Positions 177 through 64,000 of a stretch of DNA of 64,000 nucleotides are shown here, piece after piece. Origin of the DNA: Octopus vulgaris (Eukaryota); contig OX597835.1 of NCBI GenBank assembly GCA_951406725.2, positions 14,632,001-14,696,000 on the forward strand, read 5' to 3'. The translations under genes were made by a program, and so were the position numbers. Under the pieces are notes generated by a model. That model had not been told where the DNA came from and did no database searches. It was given only the letters and a program-made list of their open reading frames with translations. Each line of letters opens with the position of its first letter. The stretch's first letter is position 1.

Positions 177-360
177 AGGTAGCGAGCAGGTAGAAATGCT
201 TTGCGGTATTTCGCCCGTCGCTACGTTCTGAGTTCAAATTCCGCTGAGGTCGACTTTGTCTTTCGTCCTTTCGGGCTCAATAAATCAAGTAGTGAAACAC
301 TGAGGTCGATGTAATCGAATAGCCCCCAAAATTTCAAGCCTTGTGCCTATAACAGAAGGG

Positions 361-437
<77 letters not shown>

Positions 438-525
438 GGCGGTCAGTTGGCAGAATCCTTAGCACGCTGGACGAAATGTTTAGCGGTATTTCGCCAGTCG
501 CTACGGTCTGAGTTCAAATTCTGAG
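177..525 (+). mobile_element. Degenerate SINE A2 (A head/core, ...gccttgtgcctata tail), then (ATT)n, then a second truncated SINE A head
   Basis: B-box-like gagttcaaattcc and core gaggtcgactttgtctttcgtcctttcggg; the tail runs into (ATT)n at 361-435; second head ggcggtcagttggcagaa at about 438. Confidence 0.8.
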
Positions 526-14258: not shown

Positions 14259-15067
14259 TAATAAATACACACACCGGTTCTATTTCACTTCTGTTCGTTA
14301 ACATTTCGCCTATTAACCGCCGTTCTGGAGTATAGCTGGTATGTCTTTGATCATCATGATCGAACGATTACTCAAATGATCGGTTAGTTAATTAGCTACA
14401 TATTAACGAATTGACTAATAAAAGAAGGAAAGCAGAACCAGTGGTATAATGACTTTCGTGTGATACAAAAAATACTATTTATTAGGTCTTCTCACAAATT
14501 CACTTAAGAAGGAAATCCTGCTAAATCTAGTTACAACTTGTTCTATCCAGAAATATAGAATTGAATATGCTTTACTAGAAACCTAAAGATGGGGAAAAGT
14601 GAAAGATTATGCGGAAGCATTCGAAATTTCTGCTTTTATGAGAGTTTGCGGAATATAGATATAAACTTGAGAGCTCTTAACACATCCTTTACAACCTGTT
14701 ATTGAATATTACAGAAAGAAATGTATGTACGATAATAGTAAATATCTCTATAGAAAGAACCGGGTATCTCAGCATCGTTTCTCGACCTGCTAGAAATACC
14801 AGCAACCTGATCTCCTTCCGATCATATCCGACTGTCATAAAAATAGATGGGAGACGTATTGTCCGTGATGATGTGCTCCTAGATACACTACCAGGCGCTG
14901 AGCTGATTGAAATCGTTTGCACATTGAGCAAAATGCTTAGTGGCTCTTTGCGTTCTGAGTTCAAATCGCACCGAGGTCAACTTTGCTTTCCATCCCTTCA
15001 AGGTCGATGAAATAAAATAGCAGTCAATTCTTGGTACTTATCCATGTAATCGATTTGTCCTCACCTC

Positions 15068-15296
15068 GGCGAACTGGCAGAAACGTTAGCACGCCGGGCG
15101 AAATGCGTAGCCGTATTTCGTCTGCTGTTACGTTCTGAGTTCAAATTCCGCCGAGGTCGACTTTGTCTTTCATCCTTTCGGGGTTGATAAATTAAGCACC
15201 AGTTACGCACTGGGGTCGATGTAATCGACTTAATCCCTTTGTCTGTCCTTGTTTGTCCCCTCTGTGTTTAGCCCGTTGTGGGTAGTAAAGTAATAG
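15068..15296 (+). mobile_element. SINE A1 nested in an older SINE A2 (about 14895-15330)
   Basis: TSD atttgtcctcacctc on both sides. Confidence 0.9.
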
Positions 15297-21616: not shown

Positions 21617-21945
21617 GTAGCATTTAACCGTCTTAACTCATATCTCATTCGCAATAGTTCTCGAAGTGTATTCACTAATTTCAATGGTAGTTATTTCCCG
21701 GTGATCTATTAAGCAACCGCTTTGTTTCATTAGCCATTCCTGGACGATTCATACACCAACCGCTCGTGATGTCAACAAGATGCTTTGTGACAAAAACGAG
21801 TAACTATTTTTAATTCCACAATGGTTTTAGTTTAGTGAAACAATCAGATGGTAAATATACATTATTTTCTATACGGGCATGTTTTTTGTCCAGTATTTAC
21901 GTTTGTTTAATCGGTGTTAAGTCGATTATATGTTGACTGGATAAG

Positions 21946-22174
21946 GCGGCGAGCTGGCAGAAACGGTAGCACGCTGGGCGAAATGCGTAGCCGTATTTCG
22001 TCTGCCGTTACGTTCTGAGTTCAAATTCCGCCGAGGTCGACTTTGCCTTTCATCCTTTCGGGGTCGATAAATTAAGTACCAGTTACGCACTGGGGTCGAT
22101 GGAATCGACTTAATCGCTTTGTCTGTCCTTGTTTGTCCCCTCTGTGTTTAGCCCCTTGTGGGTAGTAAAGAAAT
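21946..22174 (+). mobile_element. SINE A1 with TSD
   Basis: TSD tatatgttga(c/t)tggat. Confidence 0.92.
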
Positions 22175-22362
22175 ATATATGTTGATTGGATGTGCACATT
22201 GTGACAAAATATTCCACTCAGATAAACTAAAAGTATACTGTGTTGGGTTATCTCTCTTCGCGTGTATTTAAGTGATTCAATTTATACTCCACAGGTTTCT
22301 TAGAGTACTGTAAAGATAGTCAGAGTACTCTGGTTAAGGACATTTAATGCATGCTGCATCAC

Positions 22363-25796: not shown

Positions 25797-26018
25797 GGTG
25801 GCGAGCTGGCAGAAACGTTAGCACGCTGGGCGAAATGCATAGCCGTACTTCGTCTGCCGTTACGTTCTGAGTTCAAATTCCGCCGAGGTCGACTTTGCCT
25901 TTCATCCTTTCGGGGTCGATTAAATAAGTACCAGTTACGCACTGGGGTCGATATAATCGACTTAATCCGTCTGTCTGTCCTCTCTGTGTTTAGCCCCTTA
26001 TGGGTAGTATAGAAATAG
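25797..26018 (+). mobile_element. SINE A1 with TSD
   Basis: TSD atagtatattttacaat. Confidence 0.92.
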
Positions 26019-34687: not shown

Positions 34688-34769
34688 GTATATATATATA
34701 TATATATTTTTTTTTTTTAATTTTTATCTAGTTTCAGCTCACAAGCTGTGGCCATGCTGGGGCACCGCC

Positions 34770-34826
<57 letters not shown>

Positions 34827-35067
34827 TGAGTGTATTTTTACCTTGTTAACAATTAACACGGAAAAAAAAAATAAATAGTTACCAGGGCAGCAAAAATCTC
34901 ACAAGTAAAGGTGTTGTAACTCCTTGTTTATAAAGGTAGAAACTTCGTGTTTACGTTGAATATTTTGAATAATATGAATAAAAATATGAATATATATATA
35001 TATATATTTTTTTTTAAATTTTTATCTAGTTTCAGCTCACAAGCTGTGGCCATGCTGGGGCACCGCC

Positions 35068-35124
<57 letters not shown>

Positions 35125-35277
35125 TGAGTGTATTTTTACCTTGTTAACAATTAACACGGAAAAAATAAATAAATAGTTACCAGGGCAGCAAAAATCTCAC
35201 AAGTAAAGGTGTTGTAACTCCTTGTTTATAAAGGTAGAAACTTCGTGTTTACGTTGAATATTTTGAATAACATGAAT

Positions 35278-35290
<13 letters not shown>
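34688..35290. repeat. About 300-bp near-perfect tandem duplication bounded by (TA)n
   Basis: Each unit is a SINE-B-like tail fragment, then (TA)n, then gaatgagtgtattttt...gaataaaa. Confidence 0.92.
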
Positions 35291-35326
<36 letters not shown>

Positions 35327-38214: not shown

Positions 38215-39090
38215 TGTCCAATAGGCACAAGGGCGGCAACATTTTTAGAGAAAGGAAGTTGATTGCACCACCCTTAGTGCTCAACTGGTACGTTATTGTA
38301 TCGGTTCTGAAAGGGCGAAAGGGCAAATTTGACCTCGGCGGCATTTGAACTCGCAATGTAAAGAGTCGGAGAAATGTAGGTAAGCATTTTGTTCGACAAT
38401 TTGCCTGTTCTATTGCTCTCGTAATAATAATGCTTTCAAATTATGACTAAAGGCGAGCAATTTTAGAGGGCTGAGACAAGTGGAAAACATGTACCCCCGT
38501 GATCAACTACCCCGAAACGGCGAAAGGTGAGGTTGGTTTCGGTTGCATATGAACTCAGAACGCAAAGAATCGGAAGAAAAGCTGCTAAGCATTTGGTCCG
38601 GCACACTCTCGATTCTATCAGCTGACAATAGTTTCAGGTTTTGACGCAAGGCCAGCAATTTAAGGGTGGTGGGGTGGGGGCAAGTCGATTACATCAACTT
38701 CCAGTACTTCACTGATGCATTATTTTATCAACCCCCAAAAGGAAGAAAGGCAAAGGTGACCGGCGAGATTTGAACTCAGAACGTAAAGAGACAAGAAATT
38801 CCACCGAGCGCACTAAGGATTCCTCCAGTTGATGATGATAATGATGATAATAATAATAATAATAATAATAATAGTCCTTCCAACAAAAGGCATAAGGACT
38901 GATATTTGGGGGAGGGGACTGGTCGATCACATCGACCCCAGTGTTTCACTGGTACTTACTTTATTGACTCAGAAAGAATGAAAGGCAAAGTCGGCCTCGG
39001 AGGAATTTGAACTCAGAACGTAGTGACAAATGAAATACTGTTAAGCATTTCGCCCGGTGTGCTAACGATTCTTTAAGCTCGTTGCCTTTA
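38215..39090 (-). mobile_element. Chain of four degenerate co-oriented SINE A2 copies, mostly separated by (TAA)n
   Basis: Repeated gaaaggcaaa.tcgacctcggc.g.atttgaactc cores at about 38320, 38520, 38750 and 38980. Confidence 0.8.
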
Positions 39091-39094
39091 ATAA

Positions 39095-40232
39095 TAATCT
39101 TTTCTATGCTAGACACAAGGCCCGAAATTTTGGGGTTGAGGGCCAGTCGATTAGATTGACCCCAGTACGCAACCGGTACTTAATTTATCGACCTCGAAAA
39201 GATGAAAGGCAATGTCGACCTCGGCGGAATTTGAACTTGGAACGTAGCGGCAGACGAAATACCTATTTCTTTATTACTCACAAGGGGCTAAACACAGAGG
39301 GGACAAACAAGGACAGACATAGGTATTAAGTCGATTACATCGACCCCAGTGCGTAACTGGTACTTAATTTATCGACCCAGAAAGGATGAAAGGCAAAGTC
39401 GACCTCGGCGGAATTTGAACTCAGAACGTACAGACAGACCAAATACCTATTTCTTTATTACCCACAAGGGGCTAAACATAGAGGGGACAAACAAGGACAG
39501 ACATAGGTATTAAGTCGATTACATTGACCCCAGTGCGTAACTGGTACTTAATTTATCGACCCCGAAAGGATGAAAGGCAAAGTCGACCTCGGCGGAATTT
39601 GAACTCAGAACGTACAGACAGACCAAATACCTATTTCTTTATTACCCACAAGGGGCTAAACATAGAGGGGACAAACAAGGACAGACATAGGTATTAAGTC
39701 GATTACATCGACCCCAGTGCGTAACTGGTACTTAATTTATCGACCCAGAAAGGATGAAAGGCAAAGTCGACCTCGGCGGAATTTGAACTCAGAACGTACA
39801 GACAGACCAAATGCCTATTTCTTTACTACCCACCAAGGGGCCAAACATAGAGGGGACAAACAAGGACAGACATAGGTATTAAGTCGATTACATTGACCCC
39901 AGTGCGTAACTGGTACTTAATTTATCGACCCCGAAAGGATGAAAGGCAAAGTCGACCTCGGCGGAATTTGAACTCAGAACGTAACAGACAGACCAAATAC
40001 CTATTTCTTTATTACCCACAAGGGGCTAAACATAGAGGGGACAAACAAGGACAGACATAGGTATTAAGTCGATTACATTGACCCCAGTGCGTAACTGGTA
40101 CTTAATTTATCGACCCCGAAAGGATGAAAGGCAAAGTCGACCTCGGCGGAATTTGAACTCAGAACGTAGCGGCAGACGAAATACGGCTACGCATTTCGCC
40201 CGGCGTGCTAACAATTCTGCCAGCTCACCGCC
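39095..40232 (-). repeat. SINE A concatemer: one head, five A1 units of 184-186 bp, one A2-tailed unit
   Basis: Unit boundaries (ctatttc) at 39263, 39447, 39631, 39815 and 40001. Confidence 0.95.
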
Positions 40233-59079: not shown

Positions 59080-59138
<59 letters not shown>

Positions 59139-60728
59139 TAAGGTATGTAGAAAAATACAACATGGACAAGAACGTATAACTCTTAGAAGACGACACAATA
59201 AACACGGACAGGACATTCGAAACCCTCAGTCTTCAGTCAAGAACCGGATCATCGTAGTAATTTCGGCTGATTAATCTTGAGATTACTAGATCACGGCCAG
59301 CCCTCCAAGAAAAACCAAGCAACGAGCATTAGAAAAACTAAGCTGGAAGCGTAGATTTCCTGGAAGAAGGATCGAATGCATACGAACACCAGGACAGCAA
59401 AAGGGACAGATATAAAAAAACAAAAAACAATAATGGAATACAGAAACATGAAATACAGAAGCATTAACGGTGAAAACAACAGTGTCTTACGACTGATAAC
59501 AAGCAAACAAATTTTTTCTCTGGCGCAATGGAAAAAGCCTTTATAGTGGCGGACGAAAACAGCGATGTTAACAGAACGAGGGTCAGAGGCTGAAAGGCAG
59601 ATTTCGGCCAACAGTCACGTGACAGAGAAGAGGGAAAAGAAAAGAAAGAGAAGCAAAGGAAGAGAGAGAGAGAGGAGGGACAAACGCAACAAAGAGAGAG
59701 AAGAGAGAGAAAGAAGGAATCAGAGAGAGAGAAGGGATGGGTGTCGAAGAATGACCTGTGAGTGCAGAGCGAGACAAAGAAATAGGAGGGTAGTGGAAGA
59801 CTAGACCAAAGAATCAGAGGAAAGAGAAGAGAAAAAGAGGATGAGTAGAGAGAAAAGAGAGAGAGGGGGACAGATCAAGTAAAAATGAGAGAGAGAGAGA
59901 GACAAACAGAGAGTCGTACCAATTATTAAGAATATGTGCTCACATAAATGTTAAGGGGGGTACGGGGCGCCTGGAATATATGTTAAGGTATGTAGAAAAA
60001 TACAACATGGACAAGAACGTATAACTCTTAGAAGACGACACAATAAACACGGACAGGACATTCGAAACCCTCAGTCTTCAGTCAAGAACCGGATCATCGT
60101 AGTAATTTCGGCTGATTAATCTTGAGATTACTAGATCACGGCCAGCCCTCCAAGAAAAACCAAGCAACGAGCATTAGAAAAACTAAGCTGGAAGCGTAGA
60201 TTTCCTGGAAGAAGGATCGAATGCATACGAACACCAGGACAGCAAAAGGGACATATATAAAAAAACAAAAAACAATAATGGAATACAGAAACATGAAATA
60301 CAGAAGCATTAACGGTGAAAACAACAGTGTCTTACGACTGATAACAAGCAAACAAATTTTTTCTCTGGCGCAATGGAAAAAGCCTTTATAGTGGCGGACG
60401 AAAACAGCGATGTTAACAGAACGAGGGTCAGAGGCTGAAAGGCAGATTTCGGCCAACAGTCACGTGACAGAGAAGAGGGAAAAGAAAAGAAAGAGAAGCA
60501 AAGGAAGAGAGAGAGAGAGGAGGGACAAACGCAACAAAGAGAGAGAAGAGAGAGAAAGAAGGAATCAGAGAGGAGAAGGGATGGGTGTCGAAGAATGACC
60601 TGTGAGTGCAGAGCGAGACAAAGAAATAGGAGGGTAGTGGAAGACTAGACCAAAGAATCAGAGGAAAGAGAAGAGAAAAAGAGGATGAGTAGAGAGAAAA
60701 GAGAGAGAGGGGGACAGATCAAGTAAAA
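59139..60728. repeat. 845-bp near-identical partial tandem duplication flanked by (TA)n
   Basis: Units start at ttaaggtatgtagaaaaatacaac (about 59138 and 59983); the duplicated ORFs at 59291 and 60136 are offset by 845 bp. Confidence 0.95.
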
Positions 60729-61454
60729 AATGTATATATATATATACATACACACACACACACATACACGCATGCTCATATATATTGCATTAATAAAAGT
60801 TTATCTCTAGCTTGAAGCCATGTCTGTAACACCATTTTAAGAATTTATCGTCAAACGATGGATTTTTTAAATTATTCAAAACTGTCAATTTTTCCTTTTT
60901 CTTTTTTTTTTTTTTTTAAGAATCTTATCCCCTTTTCGTGACTTGAACATTTTTGCAAAATTTTTAGAATTGAATGATTAATGCCATATTATGTTCTAAG
61001 TATTTTTCTTGGGGATTACACAGGCAGAATAGCATTCTTAGCGTGCTTCCATCAATTCTGAAACCATACTGTGTTGCTATGTATTACAGAGGATTCTGGG
61101 CGCTTTGAGAACATTTTGTACATTTACACAAGTATTCTGGTACAATACTTGTAAAACACATCTAAAATTTTCTCCTATCCTTGCAGAAATAATAATACTA
61201 ATTTTAGTCATTCACGTTTGAGGGTTTAAAGTTCCGTGTATTTTATATGTAAACGTCATTTACCTATCGTTTGTTTATGCAGATGGCGTGTCTGAAATAT
61301 TTAATTATTAAATATATATTTCCTCCTTCAACAAATGCGCTATTGTCTAATATTTAGTCCATTCTCTATTTGCTGCCAAGTTCTTTACTTGGATGCAATG
61401 AATTTCGAACCTTGTTGGTTATTGCCGTAATGCCTTTTCACTGATAAGGGATCC

Positions 61455-61828: not shown

Positions 61829-62418
61829 TATTTCTTTATTGCCCACAAAGGGCTAAATATATAGGGGACAAACAAGGACAGACAAACAGATTAGGTCGAT
61901 TACGTCGACCCCAATGCGAAACTGGTACTTTATTTATCGACCCCGACAGGATGAAAGGCAAAGTCGACCTCGGCGGAATTTGAACTCAGAACGTAACGAC
62001 AGACGAAATACCTATTTCTTTACAACCCACAAGGGGTTAAACATAGAGGGGACAGACAAGGACAGACAAACGGATTAAGTCGATTACGTCGACCCCCTGT
62101 GCGAAACTGGTACTTTATTTATCGACCCCGAAAGGATGAAAGGCAATTCGACCTCGGCGGAATTTGAACTCAGAACGTAACGACAGGCGAAATACCTATT
62201 TCTTTACTACTCACAAGGGGCTAAACATAGAGGGGACAGACAAACGGATTAAGTCGATTACATCGACCCCAGTGCATAACTGGTACTTATTTAATCGACC
62301 TCGAAAGGATGAAAGGCAAAGTCGACCTCGGCGGAATTTGAACTCACAGCGTAACGATAGACGAAATACTGATGAGCATTTCGCCCGGTGTTCTAACGTT
62401 TCTGCCAGCTCGCCGCCT
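61829..62418 (-). repeat. SINE A1 trimer (one head plus three units)
   Basis: Junctions gaaatacctatttc at about 62006 and 62189. Confidence 0.93.
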
Positions 62419-62777
62419 TGTATATAGTGAAAGAGTAAATGGTATGAAAACGGTTGAGAAACACTGCCCTATGTATATAAATCTTAGCAGGAAAGCTATT
62501 ACACTGTGATGCTTCGAGTGACACAGCATCTGACAGATGCGCTCCTTGTGTCCAGAAATCGACTTGACAATATTTTCCTGTTCATTGTGTTGCGCTGCAC
62601 GAATGAAGAATGAGAAGCAATTAATTCTATCTCCTCCAAGTCGAAGACGTCAAGCGGTGTTCCCCATAAGTTGATTCCAAATTTTGATGCAAGGCCAGCA
62701 ATTTCGGTGGAGTAGGGATAACTTGATAACATCGACTCCCCCTCCGCCAATGATCAACTGGTACTTATTTCGTTAAA

Positions 62778-63192
62778 GGCGGCGAGCTGGCAGAACTGTT
62801 AGCACGCCGGTCGAAATGCTTAGCGGTATTTCGTCTGCCGTTACGTTCTGAGTTCAAATTCCGCCGAGGTCGACTTTGCCTTTCATCCTTTCGGGGTCGA
62901 TAAATAAAGTACCAGTTAGGCACTGGGGTCGATGTAATCGACTTAATACCTATGTCTGTCCTTGTTTGTCCCCTCTGTGTTTAGCCCCTTGTGGGTAATA
63001 AAGAAATAGGTATTTCGTCTGCCGTTACGTTCTGAGTTCAAATTCCGCCGAGGTCGACTTTGCCTTTCATCCTTTCGGGGTCGATAAATTAAGCACCAGT
63101 TACGCACTGGGGTCGATGTAATCGACTTAATACCTATGTCTGTCCTTGTTTGTCCACTCTATGTTTAGCCCCTTGTGGGTAGTAAAGAAATA
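62778..63192 (+). repeat. SINE A1 dimer within a single TSD
   Basis: Junction aagaaatag|gtatttcg at about 63009; flanks ggtact(t)atttcgtt. Confidence 0.93.
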
Positions 63193-63707
63193 GGTACTAT
63201 TTCGTTGACTCGGATAATTGCTCGGCTGTCAACTCGCCGACTTAGTGTCCCCATAAATTATTGAGCTACGTTTTAGAGGTTTCGGGTTTCACTCGTGCCT
63301 TGTAGAAATTCGAGATGTTACATAAAACCACCGAGCAGCTATACTATTCAATTCCAACACGATCTATTTACCATCTTCCCAGCATAATTGCGAAATACCT
63401 CTATTCAGGGGACCGTACAATCCCCTATTATTGAAATGCCATTCTCAATTGTTTTTAAAATACTAATTCTAGCAAGTAGACCCATTAAAATATCTTAGCA
63501 GGTTCGCTCATCCCCCGGCAAAAGAAGGTACCCAGCTATGACCACCCACTTCGAGAATCAGCAATAAGTTATAATGAAATACATTCTTTTCGCTTAGGAC
63601 AACGATTTGTAAGTTTTCTCTGTTACTATGAAATTGGTACCCCTAGGGGGCCACATCGTACTGGGAGCCTGTCTCTCGCTAAAACAACACAAAATGGAGA
63701 TTCCGAT

Positions 63708-64000
63708 TACTCTTTTATTCTCTTGTTTCAGTCATGTGACTGTGGCCATGCTGGAGCACCGTCTTTAGTCGAGCAAATCGACCCAAGGTCTTATTCTTTG
63801 TAAGCCTAGTACTTATTCTATCGGTCTCTTTTACTGAACCGCTAAGTTACGGGGACGTAAACACATCAGCATCGGTTGTCAAGCGATGTTGGGGGGGGGG
63901 CAACAAACACAGACACACAAACATATACACACACATACATATATATATACACATATATATGACGGGATTCTTTCAGTTTCCGTCTACAAAATCCACTCAT
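63708..64000 (-). mobile_element. SINE B running off the window end
   Basis: Reverse complement of the B consensus. Confidence 0.9.

Follow-up and report, generated by a model that had tools for sequence, protein, structure and literature searches.

Tandem multimers of an Octopus vulgaris SINE share one exact junction and are best read as self-targeted insertions

SINE tandem arrays are already known. In squamates, the SINE-derived satellites (sSat) consist of tandem partial-SINE units (Vassetzky et al. 2023, PMC10702118), and in the blood clam Scapharca broughtonii a tRNA SINE forms multimers of the type TSD-(SINE)n-TSD (PMC11481361). According to the available text of PMC10702118, the squamate satellites can be hundreds of units long and often have a subtelomeric position, and their main explanation is unequal recombination or insertion at the same locus; like the three arrays described here, which lie in a 64-kb stretch of the Octopus vulgaris genome (64,000 nucleotides, hereafter the window), they have unit limits that are uniform from locus to locus and dimeric patterns that alternate. 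Both also have units shorter than the SINE, with one terminal unit extended to the SINE end (3/3 arrays here). In contrast to sSat, the octopus arrays are short, dispersed and TSD-flanked, end at the exact 3' end of the element and are joined at a site carrying its target motif; the sSat criterion being at least four middle monomers, inner units number four, one and none in the arrays called 39, 61 and 62, respectively. With the clam multimers they share the host phylum and probably the element type (a mollusc tRNA SINE), a complete head in first position, head-truncated later units and a single TSD pair (PMC11481361). The inner units of the clam are also 3'-truncated, by internal duplication, whereas every octopus unit keeps its full 3' end, and the available text of PMC11481361 describes no fixed self-target site.

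Other mobile elements offer partial parallels. The tandem dimers formed by double insertion in Drosophila (McGurk and Barbash 2018, PMC5932611) are comparable in that a preference for an insertion site gives tail-to-internal tandems which then undergo unequal exchange; as presented in the available portion of that paper, they keep the target duplication in the junction and are variably truncated in 5', whereas in the octopus all eight junctions lack a spacer and share a single breakpoint. Animal non-LTR retrozymes are described in the available text of PMC7229834 as tandem units of 170-400 nt with a hammerhead ribozyme and circular RNAs. The 184-nt octopus units fall within this range; unlike retrozymes, they lack a ribozyme and follow a Pol III head in each array. 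Zepp of Chlorella inserts into earlier copies of the same element, and at R2 5' junctions the cDNA anneals to the homologous upstream target. Both are autonomous LINE-type elements, unlike the SINE studied here, and are likened to it by description and not by sequence; Zepp1 is named only as telomere-associated in the available text of PMC10088271. No account of a SINE array with this fixed junction was found in the openly available literature that was searched. The octopus multimer is real, widespread and base-precise, it is best read as self-targeted insertion, and a fixed self-target site would be new for SINE arrays.

The SINE and its three arrays

The repeated element, the A1 SINE, is a non-coding, dispersed sequence of 231 nt, and 33 stretches of the 64-kb window match a monomer query. 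Its family has two tail types, A1 and A2, and the window holds ten A1 monomers, of which the following is a full-length example:

21945..22175, plus strand: A1 monomer, 231 nt, with a 16-nt TSD

Comparison with the general consensus of Pol III promoters allowed us to recognise an A-box-like motif near SINE positions 11-21 and B-box-like columns 75-84, the latter invariant in all 17 heads. Positions 1-5 and 84-88 pair as in an acceptor stem when the head is folded; ARAGORN returned no tRNA gene and Rfam no tRNA match. TSDs of 13-18 nt flank six of the ten A1 monomers, the others being one copy within a microsatellite, where the TSD is undelimitable, and three 5'-truncated copies without TSD. 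The 3' end is sharp and has no simple-repeat tail. Directly 3' of it, the motif N-R-T-A is present at 9 of 12 non-junction insertions (background 0.065, p ~4e-9), with a purine as +2 base in 12/12, and extended complementarity of the targets to the RNA 3' end is not significant (20 matches vs 15.7 expected, p 0.11). A Pol III-type SINE mobilised by target-primed reverse transcription is the best explanation for the 231-nt element. A head that does not recur at the 3' end, together with long TSDs, led us to reject a non-autonomous LTR element. OK, OR1 and OR2 are tRNA-type SINEs of octopus, reportedly described by Ohshima and Okada in 1994 (a work cited in PMC4824008 and PMC4758252), and we assume that the A1 SINE may be one of these OK/OR families.

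A partner LINE was sought in 20 of the 67 ORFs of the window, which gave no match to reverse transcriptase or endonuclease families and one weak Cdc37 match below cut-off; matches to the tail within the window are SINE copies only. The T-stretch signature described for RTE-type elements in the available text of PMC13295347 is not evident by eye in the insertion flanks. A stem-loop region containing CCTTGTG is common to A1 and A2 tails (e.g. 62980-63006; a weak likeness of 70% over 27 nt) and is a candidate LINE recognition element. Several A1 copies have 2-3 A residues between TSD and position 1 (e.g. 62775-62777), and the true 5' end may lie 2-3 nt further upstream. Another abundant repeat family, represented at 63691-63900 and by 18 further matches, carries a 27-nt stretch with 78% identity to A1 positions 146-172, which suggests a SINE domain common to both.

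Three loci of the window carry arrays made of a 47-nt head followed by six, three and two units:

39090-40232, minus strand: array 39, whole, head and 6 units
40186..40232, minus strand: array 39 head (SINE 1-47), comprising A-box-like motif, 5' arm of the head hairpin and hairpin loop
40002..40185, minus strand: array 39 unit 1, A1 tail
39264..40001, minus strand: array 39 units 2-5, A1 tail, with private variants at 55-64 and alternating ones at 116 and 154
39090..39263, minus strand: array 39 unit 6, positions 48-166 of another subfamily and an A2 tail ending in (ATT)n
38866..39086, minus strand: older full-length A2 SINE directly after array 39
61829..62417, minus strand: array 61, head and 3 diverged units, with a flanking repeat of 6-7 nt only
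62778..63192, plus strand: array 62, head 62778-62824 and units 62825-63008 and 63009-63192
62760..62774, plus strand: left copy of the single TSD of array 62, read by eye
63193..63206, plus strand: right copy of this TSD, 14 nt, one base shorter (1-nt indel), read by eye

The loci, the 47-nt head and the unit length of about 184 nt agree with the original prediction, made from the sequence alone, except that array 39 starts at 39090 and its five A1 units (184, 186, 184, 184 and 184 nt) are followed by a sixth, A2-tailed unit of 174 nt. A test for one TSD per array had also been proposed; a single TSD is seen at array 62 (15/14 nt) and reduces at array 61 to the short flanking repeat. Array 39 starts and ends in (ATT)n, like other A2 copies.

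The A2 SINE at 38866..39086 is the first in a run of degenerate head-to-tail copies reaching down to ~38256. Such runs of full-length A2-tailed copies separated by (ATT)n, at 38256-39086 (minus strand) and 180-521 (plus strand), represent a second tandem mode of the same SINE family, consistent with insertion into microsatellite tails, and joints resembling this mode also occur in the public runs X14 and X8. Tandem duplications at 59131-60752 and 34692-35306 (periods of ~845 and ~298 bases) indicate that local duplication is common in the window.

Comparison of the units revealed that unit 1 of array 39 shows no difference from unit 6 at positions 49-71 and then nine over 72-166. From position 65 on it is identical to inner unit 4 (167/167 positions), and the four differences between these two, perhaps from fewer than four events, all lie within the initial 17 nt, about the length of a TSD. 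The head of this array is A2-like at positions 17-20 and has C at position 48, a mismatch with the G48 of unit 6. On the sequence, the simplest reading is that an A2 host received A1 material at position 48, with unit 6 as the probable remainder of the host element; G48 in unit 6 needs a donor-derived base and is a misfit for self-insertion. The A2 tail of the last unit, which had been cited in favour of self-insertion, is confirmed. The four inner units of array 39 differ from one another by 3-9 changes, and units 3 and 5 share two variants absent from units 2 and 4, which indicates a two-unit local duplication or conversion and bears out the suggested local amplification of inner units.

The units of array 61 differ at 15-21 of 183 sites, the largest within-array values and as many as between unrelated monomers; unit 1 groups with separate monomers, and units 2 and 3 together (support 92). 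Those of array 62 differ at six sites, three of them marked as common to monomers by a one-monomer criterion. The unit phylogeny proposed as a check has array 61 mixing lineages, and arrays 39 and 62 belong to one sub-lineage carried by only one of the ten monomers.

The junction between positions 231 and 48

All eight junctions of the three arrays join SINE position 231 to position 48, as had been claimed; the junction motif occurs eight times in the window (seven exact, one with one mismatch) and not once in 100 shuffles. Direct microhomology is at most 1 nt, and the two 5-nt words common to tail and head (226-230 with 36-40, and 204-208 with 43-47), which would place the breakpoint elsewhere, are unused. 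Unequal crossover as origin of the first junction was rejected for this want of microhomology, in agreement with the earlier argument. The SINE's own positions 48-51 match the N-R-T-A target motif, and the junction reads G-G-T-A. Eight further sense N-R-T-A sites lie within the SINE and none is among the listed joints, so that the motif alone does not explain the preference for site 48.

None of the ten A1 monomers begins at position 48. An unresolved intermediate (head, TSD, second full head) was found neither in the window nor among the 15 of 584 joints listed from public runs. Two full-length A1 copies, 15067-15295 and 25797-26017, have landed in the sense orientation within older, diverged SINEs, near positions 160 and 20, respectively. 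Both retain an ordinary TSD and a complete head, which is what one expects if the host is too dissimilar for homology to resolve the 5' end. By eye, array 62 and the 21945 copy seem to be antisense insertions into SINE remnants, without confirmation by script. Pattern scans elsewhere gave one metagenome-contig locus without SINE context, taken as chance, and none in four scans of genome and viral contigs.

Four public sequence runs were compared with one monomer, and 15 of 584 joints were listed, so that the counts are lower bounds. The raw-read run X22, with 15 of 12.9 million reads on the SINE (one with the junction), was left out. In the three contig runs, 86,822-255,680 contigs per run match the SINE. 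The 231-to-48 junction is present in contigs of all three and is, among the joints listed, the best-supported 3'-end joint in two, X12 (at least 26 contigs) and X8 (at least 36). An examination of this junction against other breakpoints had been proposed: of the listed 3'-end joint depth, where contig depth is not copy number, the share landing at 48-50 is 98% in X12 and 94% in X8, with X14 the exception at 49%. Three rows lie outside this tally, two of which look like site-48 variants and one of which would lower the X14 share. In X14, a second 3'-end joint, to SINE ~15-22 (63006-63008 to 62798-62799), equals the site-48 joint in strength. Contigs starting at 48 are mostly preceded by a SINE tail (at least 542 in X12, agreement 0.84; at least 580 in X8, agreement 0.62).

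The junction base in contigs is G, C or A, mirroring the head alleles. The share of C is 24% (X12) and 28% (X8), against 21% and 16% for C48 in heads. That of A is 8% in X12, close to the G>A rates of 5-12% at eight CpG sites and above the 1.6% at the single non-CpG comparator; position 48 is CpG only in head context, which qualifies a reading as CpG-type decay. Donor ends vary as well (CA or AA before the join), and the pairing of donor-end with position-48 alleles, all within 2 nt of the join, gives at least five junction haplotypes. This variety argues against one ancestral dimer; with junction-allele rows of 7-12 contigs each and depth that is not copy number, it speaks for several origins and not for a given number of them.

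The ends of the unit had been described as complementary and able to close into a terminal stem. The 6-nt complementarity is present (~0.002 by composition over 5 offsets); the stem itself is not predicted, its pair probabilities being 0.00 in the 231-nt RNA, 0.03-0.04 within a 184-nt unit and no higher than 0.01 over the junction of a dimer, as positions 49-56 are engaged in the head hairpin with a probability >0.99. A terminal stem joining the unit ends was therefore discarded. Folding of the head RNA gave a long hairpin (z -1.8 to -4.2 in four heads), the apex of which is, in array 62:

62809..62836, plus strand: head hairpin apex, SINE 32-43 paired with 48-59, with a 4-nt loop at 44-47, from folding

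The loop being at 44-47, the junction falls exactly at its 3' edge, in 4/4 heads folded. In 15 of 17 heads, positions 43 and 48 pair to close the loop, with seven double changes that are probably one inherited event; taken as a whole, the hairpin shows no more covariation than shuffles do (164 of 500), and this closing pair is the only one to vary on both sides. As DNA, the head hairpin is not unusually stable (z -0.5 to -1.0), and folding gave no support to a cruciform. The hammerhead core CUGANGA is absent from both strands of the unit, and Rfam gave no ribozyme match. In an old A2 copy (38643-38820, minus strand), the 5' arm of the head hairpin and its loop appear to be missing and the sequence picks up again near position 48, a hint of a fragile apex.

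Origin of the arrays

We put at roughly 55% the probability that the arrays arose by insertion of the SINE at position 48 of a genomic copy, with a 5' end resolved by homology, followed by transcription and retrotransposition of the multimer and by local unequal exchange; of the models originally offered, the one in which the SINE repeatedly inserts into its own head, homology resolving the 5' ends, has the most support. From the observed target motif, TSD sizes, array anatomy and allele variety, we infer a nick, an annealing and a multimer transcription. The enzyme of a partner LINE would nick a genomic copy between positions 47 and 48 and copy a donor RNA from position 231. The cDNA end would then anneal to the host head, instead of bringing in a second one, because it matches both host head and TSD, and the host would gain exactly one 48-231 unit behind a single head. 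The product could be transcribed and retrotransposed as a multimer, since the A box is kept, a B box is gained per unit and the A1 units lack any run of four T (T4 terminator), so that Pol III could read through the array. Multimer RNA pairing with nicked copies across the junction would reinforce the same join, and inner units would then be multiplied locally by unequal exchange or slippage, as is seen in array 39.

Self-insertion is favoured because the N-R-T-A target motif is what the junction presents as G-G-T-A, because unit 1 of array 39 is a mosaic with a TSD-sized match to unit 6, and because the last unit of that array has the tail of another family and the array occupies an (ATT)n site typical of that family. 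Also in its favour, junction-base alleles mirror the heads and donor ends vary in public contigs, the units of array 61 differ like unrelated monomers with unit 1 grouping among them, and no A1 monomer begins at 48. Against it, a few amplified source copies could produce the allele rows, and a multimer master alone would also put arrays 39 and 62 in one sub-lineage. The missing head-TSD-head intermediate, the p of 0.11 for docking, the unremarkable DNA hairpin, the C48/G48 misfit and the 49% of X14 count on the same side. Candidates for the preference for site 48 are the inverted-repeat loop between A and B boxes, the 6-nt end complementarity, selection for B boxes, or homing of the multimer RNA; as a general rule, the complementarity to the RNA end is unsupported (p 0.11).

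An RNA cleaved at the 3' edge of the hairpin loop, between 47 and 48, would let the reverse transcriptase jump from headless RNA to the next SINE 3' end and finish on a full-length RNA, with no circle involved. This route accounts for the position of the junction at the loop edge, for the conserved closing pair, and for heterogeneous units, one flanking TSD and allele variety; jumping of the R2 reverse transcriptase between RNAs without homology is described in PMC12203849, and in vivo cases in the available text of PMC3414825. We consider it unlikely, since it predicts headless monomers starting at 48, of which there are none among ten, and the public contigs that start there mostly have a SINE tail before them; nor does it predict the TSD-sized match of units 1 and 6 in array 39 or CpG-type decay at the junction base. 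Spread of one or a few ancestral dimers as multimer masters, with local unequal exchange and no ongoing preference for site 48, is a decidedly improbable sole origin. It agrees with the sub-lineage that arrays 39 and 62 share with a single monomer, the one TSD of array 62, the T4-free A1 units, the two-unit duplication pattern in array 39 and the similar one-TSD arrays of the clam (PMC11481361, available text), and multimer source copies probably contribute. The single origin once proposed is weakened by the several junction haplotypes, the mixed lineages of array 61 and, in array 39, an A2-tailed last unit and a unit 1 mosaic that require another event at 48.

A further suggestion had been a circle, a 184-nt RNA whose ends meet in a terminal stem and which is copied by rolling-circle reverse transcription as proposed for retrozymes. 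Its unit size would suit animal retrozyme circles (PMC7229834, available text), the 6-nt end complementarity is unlikely by composition and the inner units of array 39 are close to one another. However, the end stem reaches a probability of at most 0.04, neither a hammerhead core nor an Rfam ribozyme was detected, and a circle has no head, yet all three arrays start with a complete one. The units of array 61 differ too much for a single circular template, and those of array 62 differ at standing subfamily sites, which leaves this model very improbable. An assembly artefact is an unlikely, indeed scarcely credible, origin, because the units differ and contigs from three independent public runs contain the same joint; a TSD also flanks array 62.

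Self-insertion at position 48 could go further than single events. Multimer RNA, running past 231 into 48 and onward, might pair with nicked heads, those of other subfamilies included, and convert monomers to fixed-junction multimers. We regard this homing SINE as possible though doubtful; the donor-type G48 and the unit 1 mosaic of array 39 fit it.

In the available texts on squamates (PMC10702118) and the clam (PMC11481361), the first duplication that seeds a satellite from an interspersed SINE is left open. With many short arrays, a base-precise junction and allele markers on both sides of it, this origin step can be examined by counting in assemblies already available. Should self-targeting hold, copy counts and age estimates of SINEs in these genomes would be distorted, and a non-autonomous element would be landing safely in its own promoter region and multiplying its B boxes. 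Homing, if true, would amount to an RNA-templated, self-propagating conversion that adds B boxes each time and seeds dispersed satellite nuclei.
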